Of a DNA stretch of 60,658 nt, positions 2,081 through 49,732 are shown piece by piece. A program made the translations under genes and the position numbers. Within the stretch, counting starts at the first letter, position 1. Every line of letters starts with the position of its first letter. The notes below the pieces were generated by a model. The model saw nothing but the letters and a program-made list of their open reading frames with translations, searched no databases and was not told the origin of the DNA. Where the stretch lies: positions 1-60,658 of the forward strand of contig CAZSAY010000004.1 in assembly GCA_964605225.1 (NCBI GenBank), in the 5' to 3' direction. This DNA comes from an uncultured Thermodesulfobacteriota bacterium. Lineage in GTDB: Bacteria > Desulfobacterota > GWC2-55-46 > JADFVP01.

Positions 2081-2100
2081 ATATATTTATTATACCTTAT

Positions 2101-26655: not shown

Positions 26656-29005
<2,350 letters not shown>

Positions 29006-30610: not shown

Positions 30611-30642
30611 ATTATCCCACCCCTTGAAGAATTTGCCGTTAT

Positions 30643-30880
30643 AACCTTTCTTACTTTCTTTTGGAAAAAAGTAAAGTAAGACAAAGAAAACCAATAGGGA
30701 ATTAACACTGTTGCTATAAAACCTGCTTCCAACGCCCCGCTAAGCCTAAAGTTCGGAAAAAAGAAAGCAAGGCAAAGAAAACCAATAGGGAATTACCCGT
30801 ACTGCTATTGAATTTACTTCCTGCGCCCCTCCAAACTAAGTACAAAAAAAGAAAGCAAGATAAAAAAACAATATTACCCT
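30643..30880 (-). repeat. Three degenerate tandem copies of the dispersed repeat in the atpH-atpA spacer
   Basis: CAAAGAAAACCAATAGGGAATTA at 30682 and 30773, weaker copy at ~30861; hairpin variant CTTACTTTCTTTT-GGAA-AAAAG(T)AAAGTAAG at 30650-30680. Confidence 0.8.
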
Positions 30881-30945
30881 CTTAACCGTCTCGGCCTGCC
30901 CTTAATTATGCCCCCCTTGAATCATAGCTCCCCGATAAAGCCCGG

Positions 30946-31488: not shown

Positions 31489-31586
31489 GTTTTTAAGGAG
31501 GTTAGACCTCTTTTATCCCCAAAATGCCTGATTTAATTGTTGCTATAAAAGCGTGTTCCTAGCCCAATTTTCCGCCTGCATCTATT

Positions 31587-31649
31587 CCCCATTGGCCGCC
31601 CCCTACCCCCGACTGCCCCCATTGGCCACCCAGTACCCCCTACTGCCCC
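31587..31649 (-). repeat. Two 30-bp G-rich tandem units in the atpF-atpH spacer
   Basis: Plus-strand CCCCATTGGCC at 31587 and 31617; the mRNA strand has seven runs of 3-5 G. Confidence 0.8.
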
Positions 31650-31686
31650 TTTTTTTGCAAATATCCCTTCTTACGCCCACTGCTTT

Positions 31687-32658: not shown

Positions 32659-32797
32659 TACCCTTTTCTCCCGATAGCAAAGGGGAGTGCATACCTCCCC
32701 CGCATTGACAAAATAAATGATAAAATATACTGGTTAATCACGGTATTGCTAACACATGCGCCAAGGAATTGTCAAGATAATAATAGGGTCAAAATCC

Positions 32798-32945
32798 CTT
32801 ACTTTCTTTTGGAAAAAAGAAACCAAGGGAATGTGAACCAACAGGGGACAATCGTCCCGCCCCTGAACCGGCCCCTTTTGCCCCGCGAAACCACCTTAAA
32901 AAAAAGAAAGTAAGACAAAAAAATCCAAGAGGGGGACAATCTTAC
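32798..32945 (-). repeat. Degenerate copies of the dispersed repeat upstream of atpF
   Basis: CTTACTTTCTTTTGGAAAAAAGAAACCAAG at 32798 and AAAAAAAGAAAGTAAGACAAAAAAATCCAAG at ~32899, each followed by GGGGACAAT. Confidence 0.6.
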
Positions 32946-32974
32946 CCCCTTTCAAGAAACATCGCGGCCTTGCT

Positions 32975-34363
32975 TCAGCCGCCTCCGCCTACGGTAATCT
33001 CTGGTATGCGCAGGGTCGGCTGTGCATCGGCTACGGGTACGCCCTGAGCATCTTTTCCACAGGTCCCTATGCCGAAACCCAGGTCAGTGCCCACCATGTC
33101 TATCTTCTTAAGTATCTCCGGGCCGTTGCCCGTAAGGGTAGCGCCCCTCACAGGGGCCCCTATCCGGCCTTTTTCTATGAGGTAGCCCTCTGTTACCTCA
33201 AAGACAAAGTCCCCGTTTACGGTGTTTACCTGACCGCCGCCCATCTTTTTTACGAAGAGTCCTTTTTCAAGGGAGTGTATTATCTCTTCGGGAGGTGTCT
33301 GGCCGGGGGCTATCATGGTATTGGTCATCCTTGGTATGGGTTTAAAGCGATAGGACTGGCGCCGTCCGTTGCCCGTGGAGGAGGTCTTGTCCTTCATGGC
33401 GCTCAGCCTGTCATACATGTAGCTCTTAAGGATACCATTCTCTATAAGGATGGTCTTTTCAGTCGGGGTGCCCTCTTCGTCAAAGAAGGCGCTACCCCTT
33501 TTGTAAGGTATTGTGCCGTCGTCGATGACCGTTATCAAGGGGGAGGCAACCTCCTCGCCCATCCTGCCGGAGTAGACCGAGAGTCCGCCAAGGGCAAGGT
33601 CCGCCTCAAGGCCGTGCCCCACTGCCTCATGTATCATCGTGCCGCCTGCCTCGCTCGATAGGATTACCGCCATGGCCCCACAGGGGGCTTTTTGTGCGCC
33701 GAGCATCTGCACCGCCCGTCTCGCCGCGGCAAGGCCTACCTCTTCAGGCGGGGTCTTATCGAAGACCTCAAGGCCCTCGGCCCCGCCAAGGGGCTCGTAC
33801 CCTGTCTGCAGGACATCTCCGTCTTTCGCTATGGCGGAAGTGAAAAAGACAAGGCCTGTCTTTTCTTCCTCTACCCACTCGCCAAGGGAATTTATCATGG
33901 AGAGCCTTCTTCTCACGTCTCCATAAAGGGCTTTTACCTGCACTATACGCCGGTCAAAGCCCCGCGCCGCTTTCTCGGCCCTTTTGACAAGCCCTACCTT
34001 CTCGGCAAGGTCTACGTCTCCGGGCCTCTTTTTTATCTCAAGGCCCGGCGCGTTTTGCTTTTTAAGCGCCCGGGTACTCCCCGCCGGCTCACCACGGGCC
34101 ACACCTTCGGAGACTGATGCGGCAAGGTCTATGAGCGACCCCTCCGTAATCTCGTTAGTATGGGCGTAGAAGGTCTTGAGCCCGGCGATAACCCTTATGC
34201 CGCAACCCTTCTCAATGCCTGTAACGACTTTTTCAATTTTTCTGTCTTCACACGTTATAGAGGTCTTAACCGTCTCCTCTATAAAGATGTCGGCGAATTC
34301 TCCGCCGCGGGCAAGCGCTGTTTTCAAGACCCTCTCGGCGTCGAAATTGGAGCCATGTCCCAT
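32975..34363 (-). CDS. tldD: TldD/PmbA-family metalloprotease (TldD type)
   Basis: HEAVGHGLE HExxxH motif, TGNGRRQSY, PRMTNT, GTCGKDAQGVPV..AQPT; start set by AAGGAGG RBS. Confidence 0.93.
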   Translation of the reverse strand: MGHGSNFDAERVLKTALARGGEFADIFIEETVKTSITCEDRKIEKVVTGIEKGCGIRVIAGLKTFYAHTNEITEGSLIDLAASVSEGVARGEPAGSTRALKKQNAPGLEIKKRPGDVDLAEKVGLVKRAEKAARGFDRRIVQVKALYGDVRRRLSMINSLGEWVEEEKTGLVFFTSAIAKDGDVLQTGYEPLGGAEGLEVFDKTPPEEVGLAAARRAVQMLGAQKAPCGAMAVILSSEAGGTMIHEAVGHGLEADLALGGLSVYSGRMGEEVASPLITVIDDGTIPYKRGSAFFDEEGTPTEKTILIENGILKSYMYDRLSAMKDKTSSTGNGRRQSYRFKPIPRMTNTMIAPGQTPPEEIIHSLEKGLFVKKMGGGQVNTVNGDFVFEVTEGYLIEKGRIGAPVRGATLTGNGPEILKKIDMVGTDLGFGIGTCGKDAQGVPVADAQPTLRIPEITVGGGG

Positions 34364-34680
34364 GGATCCCTCCTTTTTTGCTTCAAGAAAGTATATCAGC
34401 CCCGGCAAGGGCAGTCAAGGACGCCTCAGCCGTCTCGCTACTCACTTATGGCCTGCGAAGAGAACCATCGTCCCGAGACGGCCCCATCCCATAAGGACAT
34501 ATACCCTCCATGCCCGGCGCAAAGGCATCTTAACAAAGCCTTGCGCCCTACAATCTTCCATGATAAAATGTAAAAAGTGGTACTTTGCCTGAAGGGCTAC
34601 CCTTGGCTCTTGGGCTGGTTAATAAAGACGTTGTTTTTCAGGCCTCGCCGTACAAGGCAGGCCAGGTTGAGGTATAGGGT

Positions 34681-35544
34681 ATGAGAGTTTTTTTTGTCGC
34701 CCTTTTTGCATTGACACTTGTCATTATCCCTGAAGGCATTGTTTTCAGCGGGGCCTATGAGGGTGACTATAGTGTTGGTTCAGCGGCAAATGGCATAGGG
34801 TTCTCAAGGCATAATCTCGGCAAATACGGCGGCCGGACGCGCAAAGAGAAGAACTTCGAGATGTGCGTTTTTTGCCACACTCCCCATAGTCCCGCCGATA
34901 CGCCCGGCCCTCTCTGGGGCGGCCAGGACCCTGCCGTAACGAGCTTTACGGCCTACGGTACGGGTTTGAAGGGCGTGAAATCCATTAATACGGGGTTGGG
35001 CTCGCCGTCACTTGCCTGCCTCAGTTGTCATGACGGCTCAACGGCCTTTGACAACCTTGCAAACTCACCGGGAAAAAAGAAAAAAGCTCGAATGTCGACA
35101 CCGGCTAAGTGGGGTTTCAACTTTACCGAAAGTTCGATGAACCCCGCTCTTGTAAGCACCCGGCTTTTGCTCGGCCCGGTCCTTACCAACGACCATCCCG
35201 TCAATGTCCTTTTCAGGGGCGGTCAATATGCCTCACTGAGGCAAAAAAATACCATAATCAGCCAGATAAACCTGAGCGCGGGCCTTTATGATACCATGTA
35301 TGGCCGCATAATCCCCAACCTCTGGTCCATTAAGGGTTTTATCTCGGACACGGCTACCATAGGCGACCTTCTGAGAGACGGGAGGATAGAGTGTTCGAGT
35401 TGCCACGACCCCCATTTTAATAACAAGAGCTGGTCAGAGACGGCCAGCAGGTTCATAAACTGGAATGATATGGACGGGCTTTTTCTGAGGCGTATCGGCG
35501 GAAATTTCGCATCGGGAGTATGCCGGACCTGTCACGGAAAATAG
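34681..35544 (+). CDS. OmcE-like tetraheme c-type cytochrome (paralog 1)
   Basis: Signal peptide; four CxxCH (CVFCH, CLSCH, CSSCH, CRTCH) plus conserved His in RHNL, HTPH, NDHP, HDPH. Confidence 0.85.
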   Translation: MRVFFVALFALTLVIIPEGIVFSGAYEGDYSVGSAANGIGFSRHNLGKYGGRTRKEKNFEMCVFCHTPHSPADTPGPLWGGQDPAVTSFTAYGTGLKGVKSINTGLGSPSLACLSCHDGSTAFDNLANSPGKKKKARMSTPAKWGFNFTESSMNPALVSTRLLLGPVLTNDHPVNVLFRGGQYASLRQKNTIISQINLSAGLYDTMYGRIIPNLWSIKGFISDTATIGDLLRDGRIECSSCHDPHFNNKSWSETASRFINWNDMDGLFLRRIGGNFASGVCRTCHGK

Positions 35545-35657
35545 GCGCCTGAAGCGCCTGTTTTTTTGTCTTGAGCTTTTTCCCGGGCCCCTTCTCAGGC
35601 GGGAGGCATCTTCGCGGCCCTCCCGCGCAAGGGGCCCCGGAGGGCTAAGGCGAGAGC

Positions 35658-36317
35658 TTGAAAATCGTCAAAGAGCGCTACAGAGACCGGGAGGAGGCAG
35701 GCCGGGTTTTAGCCGCTGAGCTCGAAGTCTACAGGGGGCTTGAGCCCCTTGTCCTCGGGCTTCCAAGGGGAGGGGTGATAGTGGCGGCCGTGGTGGCCGG
35801 GGCCCTGGGCTCAGCGCTTGATGTCTTCTCCGTTGCAAAGCTAAGGGCCCCGGAAAATCCGGAGTTCGCCATAGGGGCGGTTAGCGAGGGCGGTGAGGTC
35901 TATATTGACAGGACCTCTTTTTCTTTAGCGTTGATTACGGATGAGTGGATTGAGGAGGAAAAGGCAAGGGCCCTTGAGGTGATGAGGCAGAGGCTCGCCA
36001 GATACAGGGCCGTAAAGCAGAAGGTTCCCATCAAGGGGCGTAGGGTAATCATCGTCGATGACGGTCTTGCAACGGGCGCTACCATGACCGCCGCGGCAGA
36101 GGCCGCCCGCGCCGAAGGGGCCGACGTTATAATCGCCGCCGCGGCCGTTGGCTCAAGGGAAGCCATAAGGCAGGTGGGCGGGTTGAAAGAGGTCCTTGCC
36201 GTGGTATGCCCCTCTTCGCCGCCGGACTTTTTCTCCGTGAGCCAGTTCTATCTTGATTTTCACGAGGTCAGTGTGGCCGAGGTCTGCGGGGCCCTTAAGG
36301 GACGTGCCCGCACCTGA
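35658..36317 (+). CDS. Phosphoribosyltransferase-family protein
   Basis: DREEAGRVLA, VLGLPRGG, KLRAPENPEFAIGA, VIIVDDGLATGAT PRPP loop. Confidence 0.88.
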   Translation: MKIVKERYRDREEAGRVLAAELEVYRGLEPLVLGLPRGGVIVAAVVAGALGSALDVFSVAKLRAPENPEFAIGAVSEGGEVYIDRTSFSLALITDEWIEEEKARALEVMRQRLARYRAVKQKVPIKGRRVIIVDDGLATGATMTAAAEAARAEGADVIIAAAAVGSREAIRQVGGLKEVLAVVCPSSPPDFFSVSQFYLDFHEVSVAEVCGALKGRART

Positions 36318-36367
36318 GGTCCTTGCCAGAGCCTCAGGCAGTAAAGGTCCCGGCGGTTATCAATGCC

Positions 36368-36397
36368 TTGACAAAAAAAGTTTTTTTGTAGTAATTT
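36368..36397 (+). promoter_or_regulatory. Sigma70-like promoter for the c7 cytochrome gene
   Basis: TTGACA (36368) - 18 nt - TAATTT. Confidence 0.45.
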
Positions 36398-36510
36398 TAT
36401 CCTAATAACACCTAAAGAGATAGTATGAATGTGCGGCTCAACGGCGTTATGTCCCTTTCCTTATTGCCCGCGGTTGGCTCATCTTCTATTAAAGAGGGAA
36501 TCTTAGATTA

Positions 36511-37140
36511 TTGAGAGTGATTGTGAAAGGTAAGATTTTAAGTCTACTTATCCTCACCGTGGCCTCGGCCCTGCTCCTCTCCGGGTGCCGTCAAAAGACC
36601 AGGGATCTTCTTAATATTGACGCCGGCACGAAGAAGGCGGAAAAAGAGAAGGCCGGCGGACATATGACGGATTATTACGACAAGTTCTTCCGGAGCGTGG
36701 TGCAGAGGGCCTCTATACGCTCCTCGCCAGAGGATCTGCCCGCGTTGAGAGACCTTCCAAAAGACACGGAGGGCCGCGTGAACTGGACGGCATCTGTTAT
36801 GGGGGGCTTTATAAACCCCCGCGGAGTACTCGACCCAAAGGACAAGGAAAAGCCTCCCCTTGACCTTAATATCTTTATAGAGGCCAAGGTTCCCCTCATG
36901 GCCAATGTCATCTTTCCTCATTCCATTCACACGTACTGGCTGAAATGCAGTAACTGCCACCCGAAGATTTTTCTGGCCGAGGCCGGGGCCAACCCTATTA
37001 CAATGAACGAGATATGGCAGGGCAAATGGTGCGGAAGGTGCCACGGCAAGGTCGCCTTTGATTTTTGGCCCAGGGCGAATTGCCTGAGATGTCATATGAT
37101 TTTAAAGGGCCGCTCTCTTGAGAAGGAGCAGTGGAAGTAA
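36511..37140 (+). CDS. c7-type triheme cytochrome lipoprotein
   Basis: Lipobox LSGC; VIFPHSIH, CSNCH, CGRCHGKVAF, CLRCH. Confidence 0.85.
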   Translation: MRVIVKGKILSLLILTVASALLLSGCRQKTRDLLNIDAGTKKAEKEKAGGHMTDYYDKFFRSVVQRASIRSSPEDLPALRDLPKDTEGRVNWTASVMGGFINPRGVLDPKDKEKPPLDLNIFIEAKVPLMANVIFPHSIHTYWLKCSNCHPKIFLAEAGANPITMNEIWQGKWCGRCHGKVAFDFWPRANCLRCHMILKGRSLEKEQWK

Positions 37141-37236
37141 ACTCTTAAGTCTGTGGCGGACCCCTTTTTGGGGGGAGGCCGGGTCTGTTACTGTGAGCGC
37201 ATGGCCGCGATTTTTTTCCCGCCATGCTCGTTATGC

Positions 37237-37265
37237 TTGACTAAAGAAGGGCCTCGTAGTAAAAT
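37237..37265 (+). promoter_or_regulatory. Sigma70-like promoter for the NHL gene
   Basis: TTGACT - 17 nt - TAAAAT. Confidence 0.55.
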
Positions 37266-37401
37266 CTGCCGATTATCGGTGGTCCTATCTGCGGCGGTAT
37301 CTTAAGTAGCCGCCCTTAAGGGCACTTATATAATAATGATATAGATTTCGGTGGTATAGAGATGAACTTAAATCATAACGCCTGACCGGAGAAAGAAAAA
37401 A

Positions 37402-38442
37402 ATGCTGAAGATACTTAAAGGCCTCTTAATCATAGCCGTCCCTTTACTCGTTATCAGTTGCACTCCGCCAAAGGTGCCGGACATTGTATGGCCGGGCCCT
37501 CCGGACCCGCCGCGGGTAAAATACGTCAGATCCTTTCACAGCGCCACAGACCTCAAGGGCTTCTCCGTTGTGGGTACCCTTGTGCTTGGCGCGGACACGT
37601 CTTTTACCATGAGAAAGCCGAACAGCATAACCGTGGATAAGGATGGCAGGATCCTGGTTTCTGATACGGCCCATGCGGATATCTTCATATATGACCTTAA
37701 AAAGAAGAAGGTCTCGTCTGTGAGCTCATCGGGGACTCGCATATTTTCCAAGCCCATAGGGGTGGCAACCGATGATTCGGGCAGGATATTTGTCTCTGAT
37801 ACAAGGACAGACCAGGTTGCCGTACTTGACAATAGAGGCCGGCTCATGAAATATCTCGCTCCCGGCACCCCCTTCAAGCAGCCCACGGGCATGGCCGTGG
37901 ATAAGAAACTGGGCAGGCTCTATGTAGTGGATACCCACCTTCACAACGTGCAGTCTTTTGATCTTAAGACCTTGAAGTATTTAAAGACCTTCGGCGAGAG
38001 GGGCAAGGAGGAGGGGAGCTTCAACTTCCCTTCAAATATCGCTGTTGACGCAAAAAGCAACATTTACGTAGTGGACACCATGAACGCCAGGGTGCAGGTC
38101 TTTGACAGCCTGGGCAGGTTTCTTTACAGCTACGGCCGTTTCGGAGATTCCCCCGGCGAGTTCGCGCGGCCAAAGGGAGTCGCCATAGACAGCGAGGGGC
38201 ATGTGTATGTAGTAGACGCGGCCTTTAATAACGTGCAGATATTCGATGACGAGGGCAAGATCCTCATGTCCTTTGGCAGCTACGGCAACGGCAGGGGGCA
38301 GATGATACTGCCCGTGGGCATAGCCATTGATCAGGATGACTTTATATATGTAACTGATTCATGGAACGAGCGCGTGGATGTCTATGAGTTTCTTGGAAAA
38401 AAACACGCCGAGAGAGAGGCCGCCGGCAAGACAGAGAAGTAA
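37402..38442 (+). CDS. NHL-repeat beta-propeller lipoprotein
   Basis: Lipobox-like VISC; six repeats of F..P.G.AVD..G..YV.D..N.RVQVF. Confidence 0.9.
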   Translation: MLKILKGLLIIAVPLLVISCTPPKVPDIVWPGPPDPPRVKYVRSFHSATDLKGFSVVGTLVLGADTSFTMRKPNSITVDKDGRILVSDTAHADIFIYDLKKKKVSSVSSSGTRIFSKPIGVATDDSGRIFVSDTRTDQVAVLDNRGRLMKYLAPGTPFKQPTGMAVDKKLGRLYVVDTHLHNVQSFDLKTLKYLKTFGERGKEEGSFNFPSNIAVDAKSNIYVVDTMNARVQVFDSLGRFLYSYGRFGDSPGEFARPKGVAIDSEGHVYVVDAAFNNVQIFDDEGKILMSFGSYGNGRGQMILPVGIAIDQDDFIYVTDSWNERVDVYEFLGKKHAEREAAGKTEK

Positions 38443-38489
38443 TATTGCCGGCGCCCCATGTTTTTTATTAAAAAAACATTAATTTTTCC

Positions 38490-38517
38490 TTGACAGAGAT
38501 TAATTTTTCGGTATAAT
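38490..38517 (+). promoter_or_regulatory. Consensus sigma70 promoter for the OmcE-like gene
   Basis: Perfect TTGACA (38490) - 16 nt - TATAAT (38512). Confidence 0.75.
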
Positions 38518-38679
38518 AACAGTTAATATAGGTTCATGGGCTCATGGCGGGCCTCATAGAAGCCAAAGGCGATGGACGCCTCGATACTGCCGTTGACATG
38601 AGGCGCGGCAGGTTCGGAGGTTTTTCTGCGTAAAAATCTCCTCAACAAAGTTAAAGAAAAACAGAAAAGGAGCTATCAA

Positions 38680-39687
38680 ATGAAAAGATTTTTAGCCATC
38701 GCCATAGCGGCAACCATGGGCCTCTTTTACGTAGGCCACGCCAACGCCGCCTCTACCTTCCAGGCCGGCGCCACAGGCACCAGCGGAAAATCAGTTGGTG
38801 GACCTCTTGACACCTACACGGCAGGTATGGCCGCCAACGGCGTCGTGCAGTCCAGGCATAACCTTGGCGCCTTCAGTCATCACCTTGGCACCAGGAATGA
38901 CAACACAGCCGGCACCGTAACAGGCACGACGCAGATATGTGTGTTCTGTCATACGCCTCACCATTCCAACACCGAGACCATGCCTCTGTGGAACAGGAAT
39001 ATGCCGAACTCCTCAAGCTATATCGGTTACGGCACGACCAAGGCCGGCACCGCTATAAGCCAGCCGCAGCAGGGTTCCGTATCACTTGCCTGTCTCTCCT
39101 GTCATGATGGTGTAACCACCTTTGACAACCTTGTCAACGCGCCAGGTAAGGGCCTTGCCATGGTAGGCGTCGGTGGCGGCGCCCCCGACCAGTTCTCAAG
39201 CTGGACCTTCTATGATGACGGTACCGCTCTTATCGCCAACAAGACCCTGAGCTTTTCCGCGAGGGTAAATCTCGGCACAGACCTCACCAATGACCATCCG
39301 GTGAACGTGGATTACAGTGGCGGCAAAAAGGCCTCCCTGAGGCCGAGGGGCACAGACATCGCCACCATCAACCTCTCTGCCGGTCTTAACCAGACCACGT
39401 CATACTTTGACTATATGAAGTCCAACCTCTGGGCTGTATCCGGTTTCATCAGCAGTACCGCTACAATCGGAGACCTCCTCAGGGCTGACAGCACAACAGC
39501 TGGAGCAAAGAACAAGGTTGAGTGCGCCAGTTGCCATGACCCACACTTCAGCAACGGTAGCTATCCTGAGTACACCAGGGATTCGAACAACAAATTCACC
39601 GGCCTTAACGCAGGTGATGGCGTATTCCTGAGAAGAGTGGGCGGTAACATGGGTTCCGGCGTTTGCAGAACCTGCCACAACAAGTAA
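38680..39687 (+). CDS. omcE: OmcE-like tetraheme c-type cytochrome (paralog 2, probable major subunit)
   Basis: AAGGAG RBS, signal peptide; SRHNL, TQICVFCHTPH, PLWNR, SLACLSCHDG, NLGTDLTNDHPVN, VECASCHDPH, FLRR, CRTCHNK follow the motif order I recall for Geobacter OmcE; orthology not verified. Confidence 0.85.
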   Translation: MKRFLAIAIAATMGLFYVGHANAASTFQAGATGTSGKSVGGPLDTYTAGMAANGVVQSRHNLGAFSHHLGTRNDNTAGTVTGTTQICVFCHTPHHSNTETMPLWNRNMPNSSSYIGYGTTKAGTAISQPQQGSVSLACLSCHDGVTTFDNLVNAPGKGLAMVGVGGGAPDQFSSWTFYDDGTALIANKTLSFSARVNLGTDLTNDHPVNVDYSGGKKASLRPRGTDIATINLSAGLNQTTSYFDYMKSNLWAVSGFISSTATIGDLLRADSTTAGAKNKVECASCHDPHFSNGSYPEYTRDSNNKFTGLNAGDGVFLRRVGGNMGSGVCRTCHNK

Positions 39688-39706
39688 GTTACATATCTAC
39701 ATACAC

Positions 39707-39744
39707 AAAAAAAAGAGGGCCGATTCGCGGCCCTCTTTTTTTTT
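39707..39744 (+). terminator. Strong intrinsic terminator after the OmcE-like gene
   Basis: AAAAAAGAGGGCCG-ATTCG-CGGCCCTCTTTTTTTTT. Confidence 0.85.
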
Positions 39745-39895
39745 CTTCGTTCCCCATGGAGCGTTAAATATTGGCCGGAAGAGTACCCGTCTTTAAGCTG
39801 AGTCCCTTTTTTATATATAACCTCCATGGCATGCTACAAAATCATGGCGCCTGTCACGTTAAAATATTTTAATACCCGGATAATCCTTATTTTAG

Positions 39896-39924
39896 TTAAC
39901 AATAATAAAATAATCTTGTATAAT
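39896..39924 (+). promoter_or_regulatory. Sigma70-like promoter for the PPIase-cytochrome-FGE genes
   Basis: TTAACA - 17 nt - TATAAT in an AT-rich spacer. Confidence 0.55.
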
Positions 39925-39982
39925 AATACGCTAGGCCTTTCTTGCGTACACATAACGTGGCAACTAACATGGAGGAAATTAA

Positions 39983-41014
39983 ATGACAATGTCTTTTAAG
40001 AGGCCCGTCCTCTTTGCCGGGGTCGTCCTTATGGCGCTATTTATCGGTAACCCGGTCTTTTCCGCGGAGACCAGTCCTGATGAATTGCCGCTTATTCGTT
40101 CAATTAAAGACCCTGTAGCTCGAGTAAACGGTAAGGAGATAACAGAGGAAACCCTCCGTATAGCCGTAAACAACGTAATGCCGATGAAGAGCTTTCATAC
40201 AACTGTCTCTGACAGGCGCTTCCGCGCCATAAGAAAAGAGGCCCTTGAGAGGCTTATCAACAACAGGCTCGCCTACGACCTCGCTGTATCGAGGAAGGAG
40301 GATAAGATTACAACAAAAGAGTTTGAAGAGGGCATCAAGGTACTGAAAAAGAGGCTCCGCAGTGGTGATACCCTTGATGATGTCCTTAAGCGGAGCCATA
40401 TGACCAGGAAAGACCTCAAAGAGGACATGAAGTTCAATATTGTAGTGGCCCGGGTCCGCAGGAATGCGGAGGAGAGTCTGAAAAAAAAATCCGAGGACCT
40501 TGTCACCGAAAAGTACATGCGGCATTACTACGATACCCATCTTGATAAGTTCAAAGTGCCGGCTCAACTTCATCTGAGGGGGATTCTCATTAAAGTGGGC
40601 CCGTCCGAGAGCCAGAGGTTATGGAACAAGGCAAGAAAGAAGTTGCACGATATATCCGCAGAGGCCAGGAAAGGGGGGGATTTCGCCGCCCTTGCAAAAA
40701 AATACTCTCAGGCCGCAAGCGCCGCAAATGGCGGGGATATGGGTTGGGCACATGAGGGTAGCCTTTTACCTGACATAGAACGTACCGTGTCCGCTCTGAA
40801 AGTCGGCGAGATATCCAGGCCGGTTATGAGCATATACGGTTTTCATATATTTAAACTTGAGGGTAAGAGGCCCGCGACACAGAAAAAGTTCTCCAAACTT
40901 AACTTAAAGCGCCTGAAGTCTGAGCTTGTAGCCAAAGACTACAAGGGCCGCCTGGATGCCTGGCTAAAGAATCTTCGTAAGGGCGCAAAGGTAGAGTATC
41001 TTAGAAAAATCTAA
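39983..41014 (+). CDS. SurA/PpiC-type peptidyl-prolyl isomerase chaperone
   Basis: Signal peptide, VARVNGKEIT SurA-N-like domain, parvulin motifs GGDFAALAKKYS, GGDMGW, SIYGFHIFK. Confidence 0.9.
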   Translation: MTMSFKRPVLFAGVVLMALFIGNPVFSAETSPDELPLIRSIKDPVARVNGKEITEETLRIAVNNVMPMKSFHTTVSDRRFRAIRKEALERLINNRLAYDLAVSRKEDKITTKEFEEGIKVLKKRLRSGDTLDDVLKRSHMTRKDLKEDMKFNIVVARVRRNAEESLKKKSEDLVTEKYMRHYYDTHLDKFKVPAQLHLRGILIKVGPSESQRLWNKARKKLHDISAEARKGGDFAALAKKYSQAASAANGGDMGWAHEGSLLPDIERTVSALKVGEISRPVMSIYGFHIFKLEGKRPATQKKFSKLNLKRLKSELVAKDYKGRLDAWLKNLRKGAKVEYLRKI

Positions 41015-41025
41015 GTACGATAAAG

Positions 41026-41568
41026 GTGGTCATGAGATGTGATTTAAAGGATAGATCATGGTCTGTGCGTACCATTAAGGGCCAGGGGGTTGTACTGAGC
41101 CTGGGTATGCTTTTGTCTTTAGGGCTTTTTTCCCCACCCCATTTCGTGTTTGGCGCGGGGCAGGCCGTTACAGAGGCGAAGGACGCGCTTACGGGCAGGC
41201 GCGGCGACCCCGTGGCCGGTAAGCTAATCTACGAAAGATACTGTCATTACTGCCATGGCAGACAGGGTTACGGAGACGGCCCCGTAGGCACGGCCATTAC
41301 GCCTCATCCCGCGGATTTTGTTCATGATAGCAAGCGTATGAGAAAGTCCGATGAGAAACTCTTCAAATCCATAAGCGAGGGCGTTCAGAGGAAGATAGGC
41401 GGTGAGGCCATGGCCATGCCGCGGTGGGCGAATATCCTTGGCGAAAGAGAAAGGTGGGATGTCCTGGCGTATATCAGGGAGCTTGAGAGAAAGGGCCGCG
41501 CTCGTGAGGGGCTTGGTCCCATTGGAGACAAAGGGGCCTCTGGTCCTGCAAAGAGTACAAAGAGGTGA
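41026..41568 (+). CDS. Monoheme class I c-type cytochrome
   Basis: GKLIYERYCHYCHG..GYGDGP, HPADF, MAMPRWANIL...WDVLAYIR. Confidence 0.88.
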   Translation: MVMRCDLKDRSWSVRTIKGQGVVLSLGMLLSLGLFSPPHFVFGAGQAVTEAKDALTGRRGDPVAGKLIYERYCHYCHGRQGYGDGPVGTAITPHPADFVHDSKRMRKSDEKLFKSISEGVQRKIGGEAMAMPRWANILGERERWDVLAYIRELERKGRAREGLGPIGDKGASGPAKSTKR

Positions 41569-42611
41569 AGTTGCTTAATAGATACCATTTTTTTTTGAGC
41601 GCCCAGATCGTGGCCCTTGGGTTATTGACCGTGACAACTGCCATGGCGCTTCCTCCCGCACCCGATGATTATGACCCCGGCACAGGTGAGCCGCGTTGCA
41701 TAAAATGTCATAACAACGATAAAAAATATTCAATAGATTACTCAAGAGAGCCCTCATGCTTTTCGTGCCACGGCCCCGGTCTCAGTGAGCGGTACATCGC
41801 GGTAAACAAGAAGTATCGCCATAAAGAAGGAGATGAAGACCTTACCGTAGCGGCGGCAGAGGCGCCCCGCAAACCGGGCCTTAAGAAGGCGGCCCTGAAA
41901 AAAACCGTTAGTCCCACGGTTGCAGGAAAAAAGAATATGGTTTTTGTGCCGGCCGGGGCCTTTACCATGGGTTCCAATGACTGGTGGCCCAAGACTCAGC
42001 CCGAGCATAAAAGGTTTGTAAAGGGTTTTTATATCGATAAGTATGAGGTTACTCTCGAACGCTATGCCGCCTTCATCAAGGCTACGGGGCATAGCGCTCC
42101 CCCGAACTGGATCGAAGGCAAAATCCCTCCTGAAAAAGCCGGCCATCCAGTAACGTATGTTAGCTGGTTTGACGCCGATGCCTTTTGCAGATGGGAGGGT
42201 AAGCATCTGCCCTCTGAAGAGCAGTGGGAGAAGGCCGCCAGGGGCACCGACAAGCGTGCCTTTCCATGGGGAGAGAGGTTTTCTCGAAAAAAGGCCAATA
42301 CGCCGCAGTTCGGCTACGGCAATACCATGAAAGTAGGCAGTTTTTCCGAGGGTGTCAGCCCCTATGGCGCCTACGATATGGCGGGGAATGCCTGGGAATG
42401 GGTGGATAACTGGTTTAAGCCATATCCCGGCAACAGGCACCCCGATGAGAACTACGGGGAGAGGTTCAAGGTCCTGCGGGGAGGGTCGTGGTACGACTGC
42501 ACATACTACAAGTGCGGGATAAGCGCCCCGAGTTATAACAGGATATTTTTTAACCCTGAGACAAAAAATAACAACTTCGGGTTCAGATGCGCTACCGAAG
42601 GACAGGGGTAA
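41565..42611 (+). CDS. Diheme cytochrome c fused to an FGE-sulfatase (SUMF1/EgtB/PvdO) domain
   Basis: Signal peptide; CIKCH and CFSCH; then FTMGS, FYIDKYEVT, HPVTYVSW, LPSEEQWEKAARG, YDMAGNAWEW, RGGSWYDCTYYKC, FGFRC. Confidence 0.88.
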   Translation: MKLLNRYHFFLSAQIVALGLLTVTTAMALPPAPDDYDPGTGEPRCIKCHNNDKKYSIDYSREPSCFSCHGPGLSERYIAVNKKYRHKEGDEDLTVAAAEAPRKPGLKKAALKKTVSPTVAGKKNMVFVPAGAFTMGSNDWWPKTQPEHKRFVKGFYIDKYEVTLERYAAFIKATGHSAPPNWIEGKIPPEKAGHPVTYVSWFDADAFCRWEGKHLPSEEQWEKAARGTDKRAFPWGERFSRKKANTPQFGYGNTMKVGSFSEGVSPYGAYDMAGNAWEWVDNWFKPYPGNRHPDENYGERFKVLRGGSWYDCTYYKCGISAPSYNRIFFNPETKNNNFGFRCATEGQG

Positions 42612-42693
42612 GGTCGAATGCCATATAAAGGCGCGGGGCTATGCGCCTTTTGGGCTTCAGGATCTTCAGGCAGATGTTTTTTTAATGTAAGCA

Positions 42694-43527
42694 ATGGAGG
42701 TGGCAGTGTTTAAGGCAGGTTGGGGGGGTGCGATAAAGTATTTTGTCATGGCCCTCTTTCTAATTACGCCCGTGGCGCTTTCCGGGTGCGCGGAAAAAAA
42801 GAAAGACCTCCATGAGAATATGGTCCTTGTGCCGGGGGGCGAATTTATAATGGGTAGCAACAGGGTGGACACCGATGCCAAGGCCATGCAGTATGGATCG
42901 AGAAAACCATGGTTCGCCAATGAGTCGCCGGAGAGAAAGCTCTCTCTTAAGGCCTTTTATATTGATAAGACCGAGGTATCCATGGATGCCTACGGCAAGT
43001 TTGTCTCCGCCACAAACAGAAAACCCCCCGCAAACTGGACCGGCGGGGCGGTACCCGGGGGAAAGGGCAAGTACCCTGTGACCAATGTGAGCTGGTTTGA
43101 CGCCACGGCGTATTGCAAGTGGAAGGGAGGCAGGTTGCCGGGTGAACGGGAGTGGGAAAAGGCCGCCAGGGGCACGGATGGACGCGTCTTTCCCTGGGAA
43201 GGGGATTTTGATATTAAGAAGTTAAACACCCTTGGCGAATATGGAGGGACGACAACGGTGGGCAGGTTTCCCGAAGGTGCAAGCCCTTACGGCGTCCTTG
43301 ATATGGCGGGAAACGTACAGGAGTGGACGGCAGACTGGTATGGCCGGTATCCCGGCAATACCTATGATGACAAGGATTACGGCGAGAGGTTCAAGGTGGT
43401 AAGAGGTGGCGGCTGGGGCGGTATGGGACATTATACCATGCAGGTCTATGTTAGCGCCCCTTTCAGGAGCATAGCCCCGCCAAAGGGCGCTTATAATGAC
43501 GTTGGCTTTAGATGTATCCGAGAATAG
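42694..43527 (+). CDS. FGE-sulfatase-domain lipoprotein lacking the Cys pair
   Basis: Lipobox LSGC; FIMGS, YPVTNVSW, LPGEREWEKAARG, DMAGNVQEW, RGGGWGGMGH, VGFRC; start may be GTG 42706. Confidence 0.88.
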   Translation: MEVAVFKAGWGGAIKYFVMALFLITPVALSGCAEKKKDLHENMVLVPGGEFIMGSNRVDTDAKAMQYGSRKPWFANESPERKLSLKAFYIDKTEVSMDAYGKFVSATNRKPPANWTGGAVPGGKGKYPVTNVSWFDATAYCKWKGGRLPGEREWEKAARGTDGRVFPWEGDFDIKKLNTLGEYGGTTTVGRFPEGASPYGVLDMAGNVQEWTADWYGRYPGNTYDDKDYGERFKVVRGGGWGGMGHYTMQVYVSAPFRSIAPPKGAYNDVGFRCIRE

Positions 43528-43619
43528 GTTCATAGAGCCTCAAGTGGCGTGCGCCTTATCTCCGATTGTTGTTTTAATATCTTTCTAATGTAAATATAGA
43601 GAGAATAAAGATATGTATA

Positions 43620-43636
43620 AGGGCAAGACACTTGCA
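43620..43636 (+). promoter_or_regulatory. Sigma54-like -24/-12 element
   Basis: GGCAAGACACTTGCA: GG-N10-GC spacing, close to TGGCACGRNNNTTGCW, with an AT-rich upstream tract. Confidence 0.5.
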
Positions 43637-43677
43637 CCACTACCCACTTCCTGCATTACATAAAAAGGGTAATCGCT

Positions 43678-45633
43678 ATGAAATTCATTAAGAGGATATG
43701 CCTGGCATTGGGACTGTTGTCGGCTCTCCTCTTTTTGCCGTCCAGTGGATGGTGCGTTGATATAGACCCTTACACCTATCATACCATCATCGGAACGGTC
43801 TTTTTCGAGTACGAGCATGAGACCCGCACGGAGACGGATAGCTCAATAGCAGATAAGACCTCGAATTTCCGGCAGAACTACGGGTTGACGCTTCAGGGCT
43901 TTTTCATGGCAAGGACCCTGGCTATATACGATGGATCTTTTGATTTTGAGAGAGAGAGTACCACTAATAATTCTTCAAAACACACCAGAAATAATTTTTC
44001 CTTTGACGTAAAAACAACTCTACTGCCCTTAAGCCAGATACCTTTAACGCTTTTTGGCAGCCGGTCCTTCGGTTCATCATCTTCCACCGGGGGCTCCGTG
44101 CCTGCCGCTACCACCACCACCGTAGGCCTTGACTGGACGGGTAAATTCAGGGTACTGCCCCTGTTGCGCTTTAGTCTTGTCAGGACAGCATACAGCCTTG
44201 AAGATGACAATAGTCATGATCTTCGCATAGGATTCAGCGCGGATAAGAATTATGGCCCTACGACAAACCGCTTTAATTACGGAGGCACTTTTAGCGGTGG
44301 ATCAAGCGGGTCCACAGGAAGTACCAACACAATAGGTTTTACCAACACTACGCTATTGTCCAGCCATTCCACCTTTAACCTGGGGGTTACAGGCAATAAC
44401 AACAGTACGAACGATATCGACAATGACACCGTCGTAGGGGTTACCATGGGGCTTAACTCATACCCGAGCCGCTTTTTCAGCCAGTCGCACAACTTCTCCT
44501 ACTTCAGGAACACCTCCGATAATACGACTTTTACCGGGACAACTTATGGAGGTAGTCTGCGGTACGATCTTTCAAGGAAGATATCCACCAACCTTTCGCT
44601 CGGCATATCCAAGACCTTTACAGAGACGCCTACGAGCTCGTTGGATCTTACCACTACCAACGCCTCGGGCTCTCTCGCCTATAAGCTTACGGAGCACCTC
44701 TATACCACGCAGGTAGCGAACTTCTCTCTTACGGAGTCCAGCTCTTCGGAACAGAGCACTATCAATCTGAGCGACAGAAAGCTTGTGAGGACCACAAGTA
44801 ACCTTGTTTATAACAGGAGCTTTTCACGCTTCGGCCTAAACGCACAATACGGACTCGGATACCTCTGGGATACGGATATCAATCTTGATTCGCCGGATAA
44901 CGGCGGGCAGGCTATAACCCATAACGGAGGCTTAAGCTTAAACAGGATAGATATCACCAGGTTCTTTTTCTTTGACACAAGTGTTCATTTCAGCGGCGTA
45001 CTGAAGACTACCGCCGGCACGGTTAATGACCAGAGTAGAAGTTTCAGTGCGCATTTTAATAATAGATTCTGGCAAAGATATATTGGTATTAGCGGTGGCT
45101 TTACGAAAAGCAATTCCAAGGAGGCAGTGCAATCCCTTGAGGACAAGAGTGAGGTAACAGAGATCCATATAACATCAAATCCCATTAAAGGCTCAAGTAT
45201 TGCTTTGAGCGCACAGCGCACAGTGTTTTTCAACGACCTCTCCGGGTTTAGCCATACAAACTCAGGGAATTTGTCGGGAAGCTATGGACATGGGTTACTG
45301 GGAGGCGCCTTGACTGGCCATGTTACCTACAGCATATTAGACAGGACATTCTCGGGAGGTTCTGATGTAACGCGAAACACACACTACACACTGGACTACC
45401 AGAGGAGTCTGCTACGGCGTGTGATGTGGAAGTTCAAAGCCAGTAGATTTGAAAGGAGGACAGGGGATGTTTTCACTAACAACACAATATTTGCAAATAC
45501 GGCCTTTTACCGGCTGAGGGCCTGGTCTCTATCCCTGACGCATAGCTACTCCATCACGCAGGAGAGCACAAGGGACGAAAGGGATAACAGGATATTTTTC
45601 AGGATCGGGCGTATATTCGCAAGGTTCTACTGA
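43678..45633 (+). CDS. Large outer-membrane beta-barrel (porin-like)
   Basis: Signal peptide; Ser/Thr/Asn/Gly-rich with alternating hydrophobic/aromatic pattern throughout; aromatic C-terminus (RIFARFY); no TM helices. Confidence 0.7.
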   Translation: MKFIKRICLALGLLSALLFLPSSGWCVDIDPYTYHTIIGTVFFEYEHETRTETDSSIADKTSNFRQNYGLTLQGFFMARTLAIYDGSFDFERESTTNNSSKHTRNNFSFDVKTTLLPLSQIPLTLFGSRSFGSSSSTGGSVPAATTTTVGLDWTGKFRVLPLLRFSLVRTAYSLEDDNSHDLRIGFSADKNYGPTTNRFNYGGTFSGGSSGSTGSTNTIGFTNTTLLSSHSTFNLGVTGNNNSTNDIDNDTVVGVTMGLNSYPSRFFSQSHNFSYFRNTSDNTTFTGTTYGGSLRYDLSRKISTNLSLGISKTFTETPTSSLDLTTTNASGSLAYKLTEHLYTTQVANFSLTESSSSEQSTINLSDRKLVRTTSNLVYNRSFSRFGLNAQYGLGYLWDTDINLDSPDNGGQAITHNGGLSLNRIDITRFFFFDTSVHFSGVLKTTAGTVNDQSRSFSAHFNNRFWQRYIGISGGFTKSNSKEAVQSLEDKSEVTEIHITSNPIKGSSIALSAQRTVFFNDLSGFSHTNSGNLSGSYGHGLLGGALTGHVTYSILDRTFSGGSDVTRNTHYTLDYQRSLLRRVMWKFKASRFERRTGDVFTNNTIFANTAFYRLRAWSLSLTHSYSITQESTRDERDNRIFFRIGRIFARFY

Positions 45634-46433
45634 TGGTGGACGATAGAAACGCTCTTCCATTTATACTTGTATTCGGCCTCCTTATTACTGCCTTTGGCAT
45701 AGCCTCTTTTCATCGCAACCGCATCTGGCTCTCTCCCCTTTCTCTCTGGTCCGACTCGACCCAAAAAAGTCCCGGAAAGGCGAGACCTCATTACAACTAC
45801 GCTGTGACCCTGGCCGGAAGTGGAGACCTTGAGGCCGCGCTCAGGGAGAATCTGCGCGCCCTTGAGATAAATCCGCTACTCGCCAAGGCGTATTTTAACG
45901 TAGGGGCCATATACCAGAATAATGGTGATACTCGTGGGGGCATAAGGCAATACCGGATAGCCCTGGCCTTGCGTCCGGACCTTTCCCTTGCCCACAATAA
46001 TCTCGGTGTTGCCTATCGTACGCTGGGACGCCTTGACGAGGCGAAGAGGGAGTATGACGATGCCATAAGGCTGGATTCGAATTATGCGAGAGCCTACATT
46101 AACAGGGCGGATCTGATGATGGAGCTTGGCTCGCCGGAGATGGCCGCGGCCGATTACCGCAGCGCCATAGCCTCCGGCGGAGGCCACGCAGGGGTATACT
46201 ACAGGCTTGCCATGGCCTTTAACGCCCTTAATCGCCGGGACCGGGCCTTTAACGCCTTATTAATGGCGATAAGGATGGATCCGGGGCTTTCTGAGGGATA
46301 TTATGAGCTGGGACTCATACTGGAAGCAAGGGGAAAGCCTGGAGAGGCCTCAAGGTATTACCGGGAGGCTTTAAGGCTTGACCCGGCGGGAGACAAGGCA
46401 AGGCAAAGGCTGAAGCAATTGTATGGCAGATAA
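45633..46433 (+). CDS. Membrane-anchored TPR protein
   Basis: One N-terminal TM, RNRIW..PLSLWSD..QKSP, ~6 TPRs; ATG overlaps the barrel stop (TGATG). Confidence 0.88.
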   Translation: MVDDRNALPFILVFGLLITAFGIASFHRNRIWLSPLSLWSDSTQKSPGKARPHYNYAVTLAGSGDLEAALRENLRALEINPLLAKAYFNVGAIYQNNGDTRGGIRQYRIALALRPDLSLAHNNLGVAYRTLGRLDEAKREYDDAIRLDSNYARAYINRADLMMELGSPEMAAADYRSAIASGGGHAGVYYRLAMAFNALNRRDRAFNALLMAIRMDPGLSEGYYELGLILEARGKPGEASRYYREALRLDPAGDKARQRLKQLYGR

Positions 46434-46503: not shown

Positions 46504-47304
46504 TCAAAGCGTCCTTTTGATACTGTGCAGGGTCTTTTGAGCTTCAAGCCTGATGGCCTCGGAGCTATCATCGGCAAAGGCAACGATAAAAGCTTCATAT
46601 TTCATGGCCTCTTTCCTGAACAGGGCCGCTACCTTAAGTAGCTCCACCACAAGGGGTATGTCCCTATTGTCTCCGGCACGCATCAGCGCATCCATGACCG
46701 CCGGCATATGCTCCACTTTTATCTCTTCCTCTATCCCGGCTATGGCCTCTGCCGCGGAAAAAACAGGGCCGGGCATCTCTGTATGAAGGATGGCAAATAG
46801 CGTGGCCATGCCGCTATCTCCCGTGGCGGCGAGGCCCTGGGCAGAGGTGGCGCGGTAGAAAGGCTCTTCATGAGAGAGGATATGTTTTTTCAGTATATTA
46901 AGGCCATCCTCGCCGTAATCCTCGGCAAGGGCCACGGCCGCGCTTCTTCTTACATGATAGGTACAGTTGTCCAGATTTTTTATTAGTGCGCGTTTTGCCC
47001 CGTCTGTCCTTAGCCGCGCGAGCTCCGAGGCGGCCATGGAGGATACATCTTCATTCTGGCTCTCAATGCTCTCGGCAATGATATTAAAAAGGGCCTTATT
47101 TCTCGCAAGCGCTATGGTGTGGAGCATGGTTTTTTGAAAGATATTACGGGGCGGATTTTCAATAAGGAATGAGAGGGAGTTTATGGTCTCTTCTCTGTTC
47201 TCCTTTACGAGATGATTGATGAGTATGGCGCCTTCTTCCCGTGAGACTGTACCGGCGATTATCTTGGAGAACATGATTGTTAGTTTGTCTATAAATGGGT
47301 TCAT
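46504..47304 (-). CDS. HEAT-repeat protein
   Basis: Helical repeats such as VSSMAASELARL, VRRSAAVALAE, RATSAQGLAA. Confidence 0.75.
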   Translation of the reverse strand: MNPFIDKLTIMFSKIIAGTVSREEGAILINHLVKENREETINSLSFLIENPPRNIFQKTMLHTIALARNKALFNIIAESIESQNEDVSSMAASELARLRTDGAKRALIKNLDNCTYHVRRSAAVALAEDYGEDGLNILKKHILSHEEPFYRATSAQGLAATGDSGMATLFAILHTEMPGPVFSAAEAIAGIEEEIKVEHMPAVMDALMRAGDNRDIPLVVELLKVAALFRKEAMKYEAFIVAFADDSSEAIRLEAQKTLHSIKRTL

Positions 47305-49584: not shown

Positions 49585-49732
49585 CGTAAAGCCGCTTGTG
49601 ACGATAGTGGCTTTACTTAACTACATATTATAACTTATCATTATACTTAAATACAAGGATTGTCCGCATTTGTTTTTTAGGTTTTTTAGTATAAACTGTG
49701 CTGAGAGGGGGGGTAATGCCAGTGATTTTCCT

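Follow-up and report, generated by a model that had tools for sequence, protein, structure and literature searches.

Organization of the locus

We describe a gene cluster at positions 34681-46433 of a stretch of 60,658 nucleotides from an uncultured Thermodesulfobacteriota bacterium (contig CAZSAY010000004.1 of assembly GCA_964605225.1; the whole stretch is called the window hereafter), which we regard as a candidate locus for the assembly of cytochrome filaments of the OmcE type. A preliminary description of the window had counted ten or eleven co-oriented genes with 14 CxxCH motifs; we confirmed eleven open reading frames on the plus strand and 14 motifs in total, the additional gene being one for a phosphoribosyltransferase that had been left unnamed. 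Pfam and NCBIfam backed every domain call in the cluster, and a protein of 651 amino acids (aa) had no match in either.

The cluster starts with T1 (34681-35544), the second of two OmcE-like tetrahaem cytochromes, which has 287 aa, four CxxCH motifs and a Sec signal peptide, and whose gene has its own modest promoter and ribosome-binding site. It is followed by genes for a phosphoribosyltransferase-domain protein without a signal peptide (PRT, 35658-36317; PF00156, E 1e-13), a trihaem c7-type lipoprotein (36511-37140; TIGR04257 nanowire_3heme, E 1e-18; PF14522, E 9e-14; lipobox LLSGC) and a six-bladed NHL propeller lipoprotein (37402-38442; NHL, E 6e-36; lipobox VISC). The main OmcE-like tetrahaem, T2, with 335 aa and four CxxCH motifs, is encoded monocistronically at 38680-39687. 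Downstream of it, a near-consensus promoter at 39896-39924 (TTAACA-N17-TATAAT, 11 of 12 positions) precedes an operon of six genes. These encode a SurA-like periplasmic chaperone of the peptidyl-prolyl isomerase (PPIase) type with one parvulin domain (39983-41014; PF00639, E 3e-23, plus SurA_N); a class I monohaem cytochrome c designated c1 (41026-41568; PF13442 and PF00034), whose gene overlaps the next one by 4 nt; FGE2h, a secreted fusion of a dihaem module with a domain of the formylglycine-generating enzyme (FGE) type (41565-42611; PF03781, E 3e-54; two CxxCH); FGElp, an FGE-domain lipoprotein (42694-43527; PF03781, E 8e-51; lipobox LSGC); the 651-aa protein (43678-45633), which has a signal peptide, ends in an aromatic residue and is predicted to form an outer-membrane beta-barrel of 32 strands; and a small tetratricopeptide-repeat (TPR) protein with one transmembrane helix and TPR matches in Pfam (45633-46433), whose gene is translationally coupled to the barrel gene. 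The successive gaps in this operon are 11, -4, 82, 150 and -1 nt. On the basis of gene spacing, the cluster appears to consist of three transcription units: T1-(PRT)-c7-NHL, T2 alone, and PPIase-c1-FGE2h-FGElp-barrel-TPR. PRT is probably a passenger gene; among the related loci found in other genomes and contigs, which we denote by L numbers, it is kept in L009, L010 and L014 and missing in L002, L003 and L005.

Tetrahaem cytochromes T1 and T2

The description of T1 and T2 as OmcE-like was borne out by searches against solved structures. T2 matched the OmcE filament subunit of Geobacter sulfurreducens (7TFS) with E 2.6e-19 and T1 did so with E 1.8e-12; the corresponding values for entry 9YUQ, which comprises 16 chains with 218 aa each and probably represents the OmcE bundle of Desulfuromonas soudanensis, were 1.2e-13 and 3.8e-7. 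A profile of 44 family sequences matched 7TFS with E 3.3e-21, and BLASTP aligned T2 to OmcE with 31% identity over 259 columns spanning all four CxxCH motifs (E 1e-22). Among haem proteins, the searches of PDB with T1 and T2 returned OmcE-type cytochromes only. T1 and T2 are thus assigned, by homology, to the OmcE family.

T1 and T2 were aligned with five true OmcE sequences and with three homologues encoded in related clusters; all four CxxCH motifs were invariant in this alignment, as were four further histidines. The four further histidines, the distal ligands, are H60 (SRHNLG), H94 (TPH), H206 (NDHP) and H289 (DPH) in T2, and the same eight ligand positions are kept across 44 family members, H206 at a level of at least 90%. 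T1 has exactly eight histidines (44, 66, 69, 117, 172, 242, 245 and 285), and mature T2 has three beyond the eight ligands. A recent preprint has described this set of four CxxCH motifs and four histidines in OmcE homologues, and has reported that the haem at the subunit interface requires a histidine from the next subunit (10.1101/2025.10.22.684050); eight histidines for four haems are consistent with that mode of ligation.

T2 is about 100 aa longer than OmcE through two large insertions, and some homologues in its family have a fifth CxxCH inside an insertion (P0027, P0038 and P0081; positions 1819-2616 and 2764-3612 of L006), which matches the five-haem OmcE-like group of the same preprint. 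The variable N-terminus of T2 is rich in Thr, Ser and Gly. Three of the four distal histidines adjoin an invariant proline (TPH, DHP and DPH), and these prolines would provide a rationale for a dedicated prolyl isomerase. Orthologues of T1, with 58-71% identity, also stand at the head of the cluster in L002, L003, L009 and L014.

Expression signals of T2

The preliminary description had credited T2 with a perfect promoter of its own, a strong ribosome-binding site and a terminator, and all three were found. The sigma-70 promoter at 38490-38517 (TTGACA-N16-TATAAT) agrees with the consensus at 12 of 12 positions and has an A/T-rich tract upstream; the ribosome-binding site is AAAGGAG; and the intrinsic terminator at 39707-39743 has a 16-bp stem with 7 GC pairs followed by a T run. 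A scan of the region for promoter-like sites gave 11 against 11.0 expected in shuffled sequence, and the weight of the T2 promoter therefore comes from its conservation in seven orthologous loci and not from scan counts. A monocistronic layout with such strong signals fits a structural subunit made in bulk, and T2 is a candidate filament subunit that is probably abundant.

Between the promoter and the ribosome-binding site lies a structured 5' leader (38518-38679, with its core at 38518-38649) of four hairpins. The promoter, the upstream A/T tract and the four-hairpin leader of about 130 nt are conserved together, at 38490-38679 in the window and at 9832-9965 in L002, 9825-9958 in L003, 4741-4863 in L005, 4801-4932 in L009, 3331-3460 in L010, 4846-4975 in L014 and 7548-7679 on the minus strand in L113, with a weaker occurrence at 9789-9922 in L001, where the leader precedes T2-family genes that have no assembly cluster nearby. 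Over about 160 nt, the nucleotide conservation of the T2 leader exceeds the conservation of T2 at the protein level, and 10 of the 28 leader pairs show compensatory changes. A pattern scan of metagenomes returned 107 stretches, with a true leader only in L113, and a scan of the cluster against Rfam, whose riboswitch families include the c-di-GMP and cGAMP classes, gave only a chance match to MicX (E 0.88). The leader can fold in alternative ways: its GGAGG can pair with CCUC or with CCUCC, and a hairpin in which GGAGG and a U tract face an A tract and CCUCC competes with a long hairpin that ends in the U tract. It is our speculation that the leader may work as a switch that controls termination or the ribosome-binding site. 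The leader and the second OmcE paralogue are further unusual features of the locus.

The 651-aa barrel

Prediction of the fold supported the view that the 651-aa protein is a beta-barrel. The AlphaFold2 model, made with an alignment of 15 sequences, has a pLDDT of 84.3 and a pTM of 0.60, and shows a signal helix and, after it, 32 antiparallel strands joined by short turns; this pattern suggests closure into one large outer-membrane barrel. In Foldseek the model matched only generic large barrels, namely LptD, MtrB, TonB-dependent receptors and the FimD usher, with TM-scores of about 0.3 and 7-12% identity, so the protein has no close solved relative. At a threshold of E 1e-3 its family has 181 representatives, of which 68 reach 1e-30 or better, and all named members come from uncultured bacteria.

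Comparison of profiles connected this family with the large proteins of Geobacter-type omcE clusters. A profile of 123 sequences of the window family was matched by hhalign to a profile of three Geobacter-type barrels with a probability of 96.8% (E 2.4e-10) over 561 columns; as controls, a reversed profile gave 7.5% and six block-shuffled profiles gave values below 1%. Since the match lies well above the controls, we regard the two groups of barrels as remote homologues.

Across L003-L014 the identity to the window proteins was 34-59% for the barrel, 54-74% for the tetrahaems, 61-84% for NHL and 67-87% for FGElp; the barrel is the fastest-evolving gene of the cluster, and FGElp and NHL are among the slowest. 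Such fast evolution fits exposure of the barrel and the tetrahaems at the cell surface, and suggests that surface-exposed parts are under diversifying pressure.

A large barrel next to periplasmic and surface cytochromes is also what a conduit of the porin-cytochrome type would look like. In such a conduit, single copies or small oligomers of T2 and/or T1 would be located at or within the barrel and transfer electrons across the outer membrane, and c7 would be their periplasmic partner. MtrB is among the top Foldseek matches of the barrel, NHL propellers accompany non-filament outer-membrane cytochromes in Desulfovibrio ferrophilus, and the haem-free model of T2 discussed below gave no sign of polymerization. 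The MtrB match (TM-score 0.29), however, is as generic as those to LptD and TonB-dependent receptors, and the cluster contains no MtrA-like decahaem cytochrome. In addition, T1 and T2 are homologous to a protein solved as a filament and conserve its eight haem ligands, the barrel, NHL and a membrane protein encoded nearby (described below) are homologous to parts of omcE clusters and not to Mtr or Pcc parts, and the strong monocistronic signals of T2 are more in keeping with a polymer made in bulk than with a subunit of a one-to-one complex. We therefore consider a conduit unlikely and prefer a filament-assembly locus. Membership in the MtrAB/Pcc systems was considered as a separate assignment and rejected, because the MtrB match shows 8% identity and the cluster has neither a decahaem nor an octahaem cytochrome.

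Conservation of gene order

Whether these genes occur together elsewhere was surveyed in genomes and contigs. When the barrel profile was run against the GTDB species genomes, nine loci were obtained, all in metagenome-assembled genomes (MAGs) of uncultured Thermodesulfobacteriota or "Deltaproteobacteria", and more contigs were added through homologues of T2 and of the barrel; several of these loci are partial. According to tblastn, about 12 other uncultured genomes or contigs keep the gene order wherever the contig covers it, down to an identity of 48% for T2 and of 26-34% for the barrel. The order is T1, (PRT), c7, NHL, T2, PPIase, c1, FGE2h, FGElp, barrel and TPR, and it continues on the 3' side of the TPR gene with three further genes: one for a HEAT-repeat protein without a signal peptide on the minus strand (46504-47304; PF13646); one, also on the minus strand, for TM-TPR, a polytopic membrane protein of 620 aa with C-terminal TPRs and homology to PMT_2/TPR proteins (47586-49448); and one on the plus strand for a protein of 927 aa without a Pfam domain (49670-52453). 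Nearly every related locus has both the HEAT gene and the 927-aa gene in synteny.

The region directly upstream, 26656-34408, holds on its minus strand the operon of an F-type ATP synthase and the gene of a TldD/PmbA peptidase. The same flank is present in L002, L003 and L004, which shows that these loci and the window belong to one lineage and that synteny among the closest loci is partly inherited. More distant loci likewise retain the gene order over the stretch that each contig covers. T2 is 48% identical in L005 and L113, and the barrel is 27-34% identical in L020 and L113; tblastn with the window barrel gave no match to the barrel of L005. L005 and L113 have c7, NHL, T2, PPIase, c1, the FGE pair and a barrel, L005 having the TPR protein as well, and L020, whose contig is cut upstream, has the FGE pair, the barrel and the TPR protein only. 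A reduced set is found in L006, a Nitrospirota MAG, and in the MAG L021: both have OmcE-like tetrahaems, at least one NHL propeller (two in L006), PPIase and a barrel, and lack genes for FGE, c7 and monohaem proteins. From the gene content of these two loci, we take the recurrent set for this barrel family to be the subunit, NHL, PPIase and the barrel, and the FGE pair, c1 and the small TPR protein to be additions of one clade. The conserved synteny suggests a dedicated assembly machine.

In the c7 lipoprotein the lipobox and the three CxxCH motifs are kept in orthologues, and we propose that it could feed electrons from the periplasm. The PPIase matches E. coli SurA (1M5Y) with E 3e-27, having the N- and C-terminal chaperone segments and the one parvulin domain, and its gene adjoins that of a barrel or a tetrahaem in L005, L006, L021 and L113. 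The CxxCH of c1 is conserved in all orthologues. The small TPR protein is kept in L005, L007-L014 and L020 and missing in L003; it resembles the last transmembrane helix and TPR part of TM-TPR, and the two proteins have the motif RNxVW..SLWSD in common.

The survey bears as well on the view that T1 and T2 are periplasmic or loosely surface-bound carriers and that the operon from PPIase to TPR is an envelope module with which they have nothing to do. T2-family genes without the module exist in L001, the leader goes with the tetrahaem gene and not with the cluster, and the shared ATP synthase/TldD flank means that part of the synteny reflects ancestry. Set against this, the combination of tetrahaem, PPIase, barrel and NHL recurs with different flanks in the Nitrospirota MAG and in distant contigs, the association of NHL, OmcE and a barrel has been kept independently in Geobacter-type clusters, and members of the barrel family were found essentially only beside such cytochromes in every locus inspected. 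An unrelated module accordingly seems very improbable, and we attach equally little probability to its concrete example, in which the operon would be a maturation system of the FGE type, equipped with a barrel of its own, and would simply lie next to the cytochrome genes.

Comparison with known clusters

The omcE locus of G. sulfurreducens contains purHDE, ppcA, resB, ccsB, genes for two multihaem cytochromes, NHL (361 aa), OmcE, a protein of 752 aa without a Pfam domain, and glycosyltransferases; two further Geobacter-type loci carry the same core. The window resembles it in several respects. The subunit is 31% identical and retains all eight haem ligands. The NHL lipoprotein, whose gene lies directly upstream of the subunit gene in both, is 33% identical over 319 aa (E 5e-62) and has in common with its Geobacter counterpart an N-terminal WPxxPxxPR motif. 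A large, remotely homologous barrel is encoded downstream, a trihaem c7 gene is close by (ppcA in Geobacter), and a homologous PMT_2/TPR protein of the GT-C type is encoded in the neighbourhood. For the last of these, tblastn of TM-TPR against Geobacter-type cluster proteins gave E 8e-33 for L018:1-1498 (PMT_2+TPR), 3e-39 for L019:15567-17327 and 2e-15 for L016:14191-15693. The N-terminal membrane domain of TM-TPR taken alone had no match in Pfam or PDB, and BLASTP against the TMEM260-type protein of L019 aligned the TPRs only. TM-TPR is possibly a glycosyltransferase of the GT-C type acting on the filament, and the homology to PMT_2/TPR proteins, together with the Thr/Ser/Gly-rich N-terminus of T2, hints at O-glycosylation of the subunit.

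There are also clear differences from the Geobacter cluster. The window subunit is the longer one and is accompanied by the paralogue T1; PPIase, c1, dihaem-FGE, FGElp and the small TPR protein have no counterpart in the three Geobacter-type omcE loci compared, and in the window the PPIase, c1 and FGE genes sit between the subunit and the barrel; the barrel has 651 aa, whereas those of the Geobacter type have 714-765 aa; the flank consists of ATP synthase and TldD instead of purHDE, resB and ccsB; and the large glycosyltransferase island is lacking. Two multihaem genes (T1 and c7) precede NHL in the window, but neither appears homologous to the two of Geobacter.

The smallest omcE clusters have been reported to consist always of two multihaem cytochromes, two beta-propeller lipoproteins, OmcE and a large beta-barrel, and the barrel and propeller have been used to select OmcE homologues competent for nanowires, which were found in five phyla, mainly Thermodesulfobacteriota and Pseudomonadota, with five-haem variants noted (10.1101/2025.10.22.684050). 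The window carries both the barrel and the propeller lipoprotein; compared with the bundled OmcE nanowire of D. soudanensis, it differs in the low sequence identity of the subunit and in the second OmcE paralogue that always accompanies this type of cluster.

These comparisons modify one earlier interpretation, namely that the locus is a machine resembling the OmcS-companion (osc) cluster but dedicated to OmcE-type wires in a lineage other than Geobacter. For the osc cluster, the summary in PMC13194489 gives OscH as a PPIase proposed to fold OmcS, and OscE, OscF and OscG as secretion proteins. The grouping of a filament subunit gene with a PPIase gene is indeed common to both, the likeness to OscH resting on that description; but the subunit in the window is of the OmcE type and not hexahaem OmcS, no protein of the window cluster has six CxxCH motifs, and FGE proteins do not appear among the Osc functions given in that summary. 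The PPIase is the only parallel to osc, and the closest relative is the omcE cluster, with NHL, OmcE, barrel and PMT_2/TPR protein, so that the locus is best read, from its homologies, as a divergent version of the omcE cluster and not of osc. As for the lineage, it is not Geobacter, but it belongs to the same phylum, Thermodesulfobacteriota, in the NCBI taxonomy.

FGE-domain proteins

FGE-domain proteins had been pointed out as components not known from described clusters, and their conservation here and absence from the Geobacter-type loci compared agree with this. FGE2h begins with a signal peptide, after which come a dihaem module that is conserved, a linker that varies and an FGE domain containing the invariant segment RGGSWYDCTYYKC; its cysteine pair CTYYKC and both CxxCH motifs are invariant in 8 orthologues. 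HMMER places these cysteines on C341 and C346 of human FGE, and a shift by one residue would bring them to C336 and C341, which we take to be the catalytic pair in the human numbering. FGElp has a conserved GGGWGGMGHY (with I for M in one ortholog) and no cysteine in the FGE cysteine segment; because the cysteine pair is absent, it is probably non-catalytic, and since FGElp is among the most conserved cluster proteins (67-87%), a structural or binding role would suit it. FGE2h matched human FGE with E 2e-26 and FGElp matched enzymatic FGE/SUMF1 with E 3e-23, and matches to PorK in PDB were far weaker (E 8e-6 and 4e-9, respectively).

The core of the type IX secretion system (T9SS) has SprA, a giant barrel with a bound PPIase, and a ring of the FGE-fold lipoprotein PorK/GldK. 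The window, too, encodes a very large barrel together with a PPIase of the periplasm and a lipoprotein with the FGE fold, which recalls this system as an analogy only; no other T9SS genes are present in the window, the window FGE domains are closer to enzymatic FGE, and SprA was absent from the 50 Foldseek matches of the barrel that were listed. Membership in the PorK/GldK family was rejected, because the two scores with the NCBIfam GldK model TIGR03525, 72.9 and 72.5 bits, fall far below its cut-off of 350 and the T9SS gene context is missing.

Two further observations concern possible substrates of the FGE pair. The CxPxR motif of the Cys type was not found in any cluster protein. The barrel has SYPSR at residues 261-265, resembling the sulfatase FGly motif, and this was considered as a docking or modification site and discarded, because its Arg is not conserved in the family and the barrels of L005 and L020 have no such motif despite the presence of the FGE pair. 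Our preferred guess is that the FGE pair may be a lipoprotein-anchored periplasmic adaptor at the barrel, with the dihaem arm feeding the base of the filament; alternatively, it might have a role in post-translational modification.

Higher-potential chemistry linked to oxygen is where class I monohaem cytochromes and O2-dependent enzymes of the FGE type are typically found. The presence of both domain types in the cluster, and the translational coupling of the c1 gene to the FGE2h gene, give some basis to the thought that the system takes up electrons, oxidizing extracellular Fe(II), minerals or a partner cell, instead of reducing an external acceptor, and that c1 and FGE2h pass electrons inward or to O2. 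We hold both parts of this proposal as tentative, somewhat doubtful possibilities: nothing in the window fixes the direction of electrons, and haem filaments are reversible conductors. The question is one of physiology, and electron uptake would be compatible with an omcE-type structure of the apparatus.

Interpretation of the locus

Taking these results together, we estimate with a probability of roughly 0.65 that the locus encodes an omcE-type apparatus which assembles or anchors a cytochrome filament at the outer surface and has lineage-specific accessories. This reading comes from the homology of T1/T2, NHL, the barrel and TM-TPR to omcE-cluster parts and from conserved synteny. The homologies to omcE parts, the strand pattern of the barrel, the synteny and the expression signals are what the analysis shows; the mechanism, the direction of electrons and the roles of the accessories are what we infer.

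In the apparatus as we picture it, Sec would export T1 and T2, and four haems would be attached to each in the periplasm. The SurA-like chaperone may hold either the loop-rich holo-subunit or the 32-strand barrel in an assembly-competent state. The NHL lipoprotein and FGElp would lie at the barrel, on the periplasmic side of the outer membrane, and the barrel would pass or anchor the polymer. Subunits would stack head to tail as in OmcE, the histidine of SRHNLG completing the haem of the neighbour (the identity of this ligand being taken from secondary descriptions). c7, c1 and the dihaem domain of FGE2h could carry electrons between the periplasm and the filament base, and TM-TPR, as a GT-C protein, may glycosylate the exposed subunit.

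Several points weigh against this picture. Polymerization and extracellular location of T2 are presumed from its homology to OmcE, and its two large insertions could alter or block the subunit interface. AlphaFold2 of T2 without haems, using the 44-sequence alignment, gave a pLDDT of 48.5, and Foldseek with this model found no match with E below 5; the model is unusable for judging the fold, because it is a haem-free prediction of a loop-rich cytochrome. Homology of the barrel to that of Geobacter appears only when profile is compared with profile, the single sequence giving 1.9% in hhalign and no match in phmmer. T1 and c7 gave no tblastn match to the 370-aa and 330-aa cytochromes of the Geobacter-type locus L016, and the window has one NHL gene, compared with two propellers in the clusters of the preprint (10.1101/2025.10.22.684050). 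The T2 family has 2748 members, most of them without known context, and L001 has T2-family genes arranged as tandem pairs whose surroundings, out to 10 kb, contain neither barrel nor NHL nor PPIase genes. Any roles of the FGE, c1, TPR and HEAT proteins in the system are putative.

How nanowires are secreted across the outer membrane, and how their growth starts and stops, is regarded as an open question, and no OmcE-like candidate for a cap or stopper is found inside omcE operons (10.1101/2025.10.22.684050). A more elaborate joint proposal is as follows: the operon from PPIase to TPR would be an undescribed outer-membrane assembly apparatus for cytochrome polymers. Within it, the filament or the barrel would be chemically modified by an FGE-like enzyme supplied through haems, or else the FGE-fold lipoprotein pair would form a PorK-like scaffold in the periplasm that also wires electrons into the filament base, with a new riboswitch-like leader controlling the subunit gene and T1 serving as cap or initiator. 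We consider the whole of this combination unlikely.

With the omcE-type apparatus as the preferred reading, novelty is lower than was first assumed, since the combination of OmcE, barrel and propeller has already been found in five phyla (10.1101/2025.10.22.684050). What is distinctive is the long form of the subunit, the constant presence of T1, the chaperone, the FGE fusion that bears haem, together with its lipoprotein partner, and the very divergent barrel. The cluster would extend the conserved NHL-OmcE-barrel core to a deeply diverged uncultured lineage, and it helps to separate that core from lineage-specific additions: every locus examined has the subunit, the propeller lipoprotein and the barrel, and most, though not all, also have a PMT_2/TPR protein. 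The SurA-like chaperone, the second OmcE paralogue, the haem-bearing periplasmic adaptors and the regulatory leader become candidates for the missing functions of nanowire assembly. A wider set of organisms, in hydrothermal and subsurface settings, is predicted to perform long-range extracellular electron transfer, and the compact cassette of 12 kb may be useful for heterologous production of nanowires.

Neighbouring genes

The HEAT-repeat gene, whose product is cytoplasmic, is a conserved neighbour of the cluster, being syntenic in L003, L007-L014 and L020, the last of which is a distant locus; the 927-aa gene is likewise kept in the distant locus L005. Farther away, positions 72-11125 of the window carry genes for a radical SAM protein with DUF3463, LytB/IspH, an NAD-dependent epimerase, an MMPL transporter, two more radical SAM proteins (one of them B12-binding) and a fusion of a nucleotidyltransferase with a CDP-alcohol phosphatidyltransferase, which we take to be a lipid cluster of the hopanoid type.

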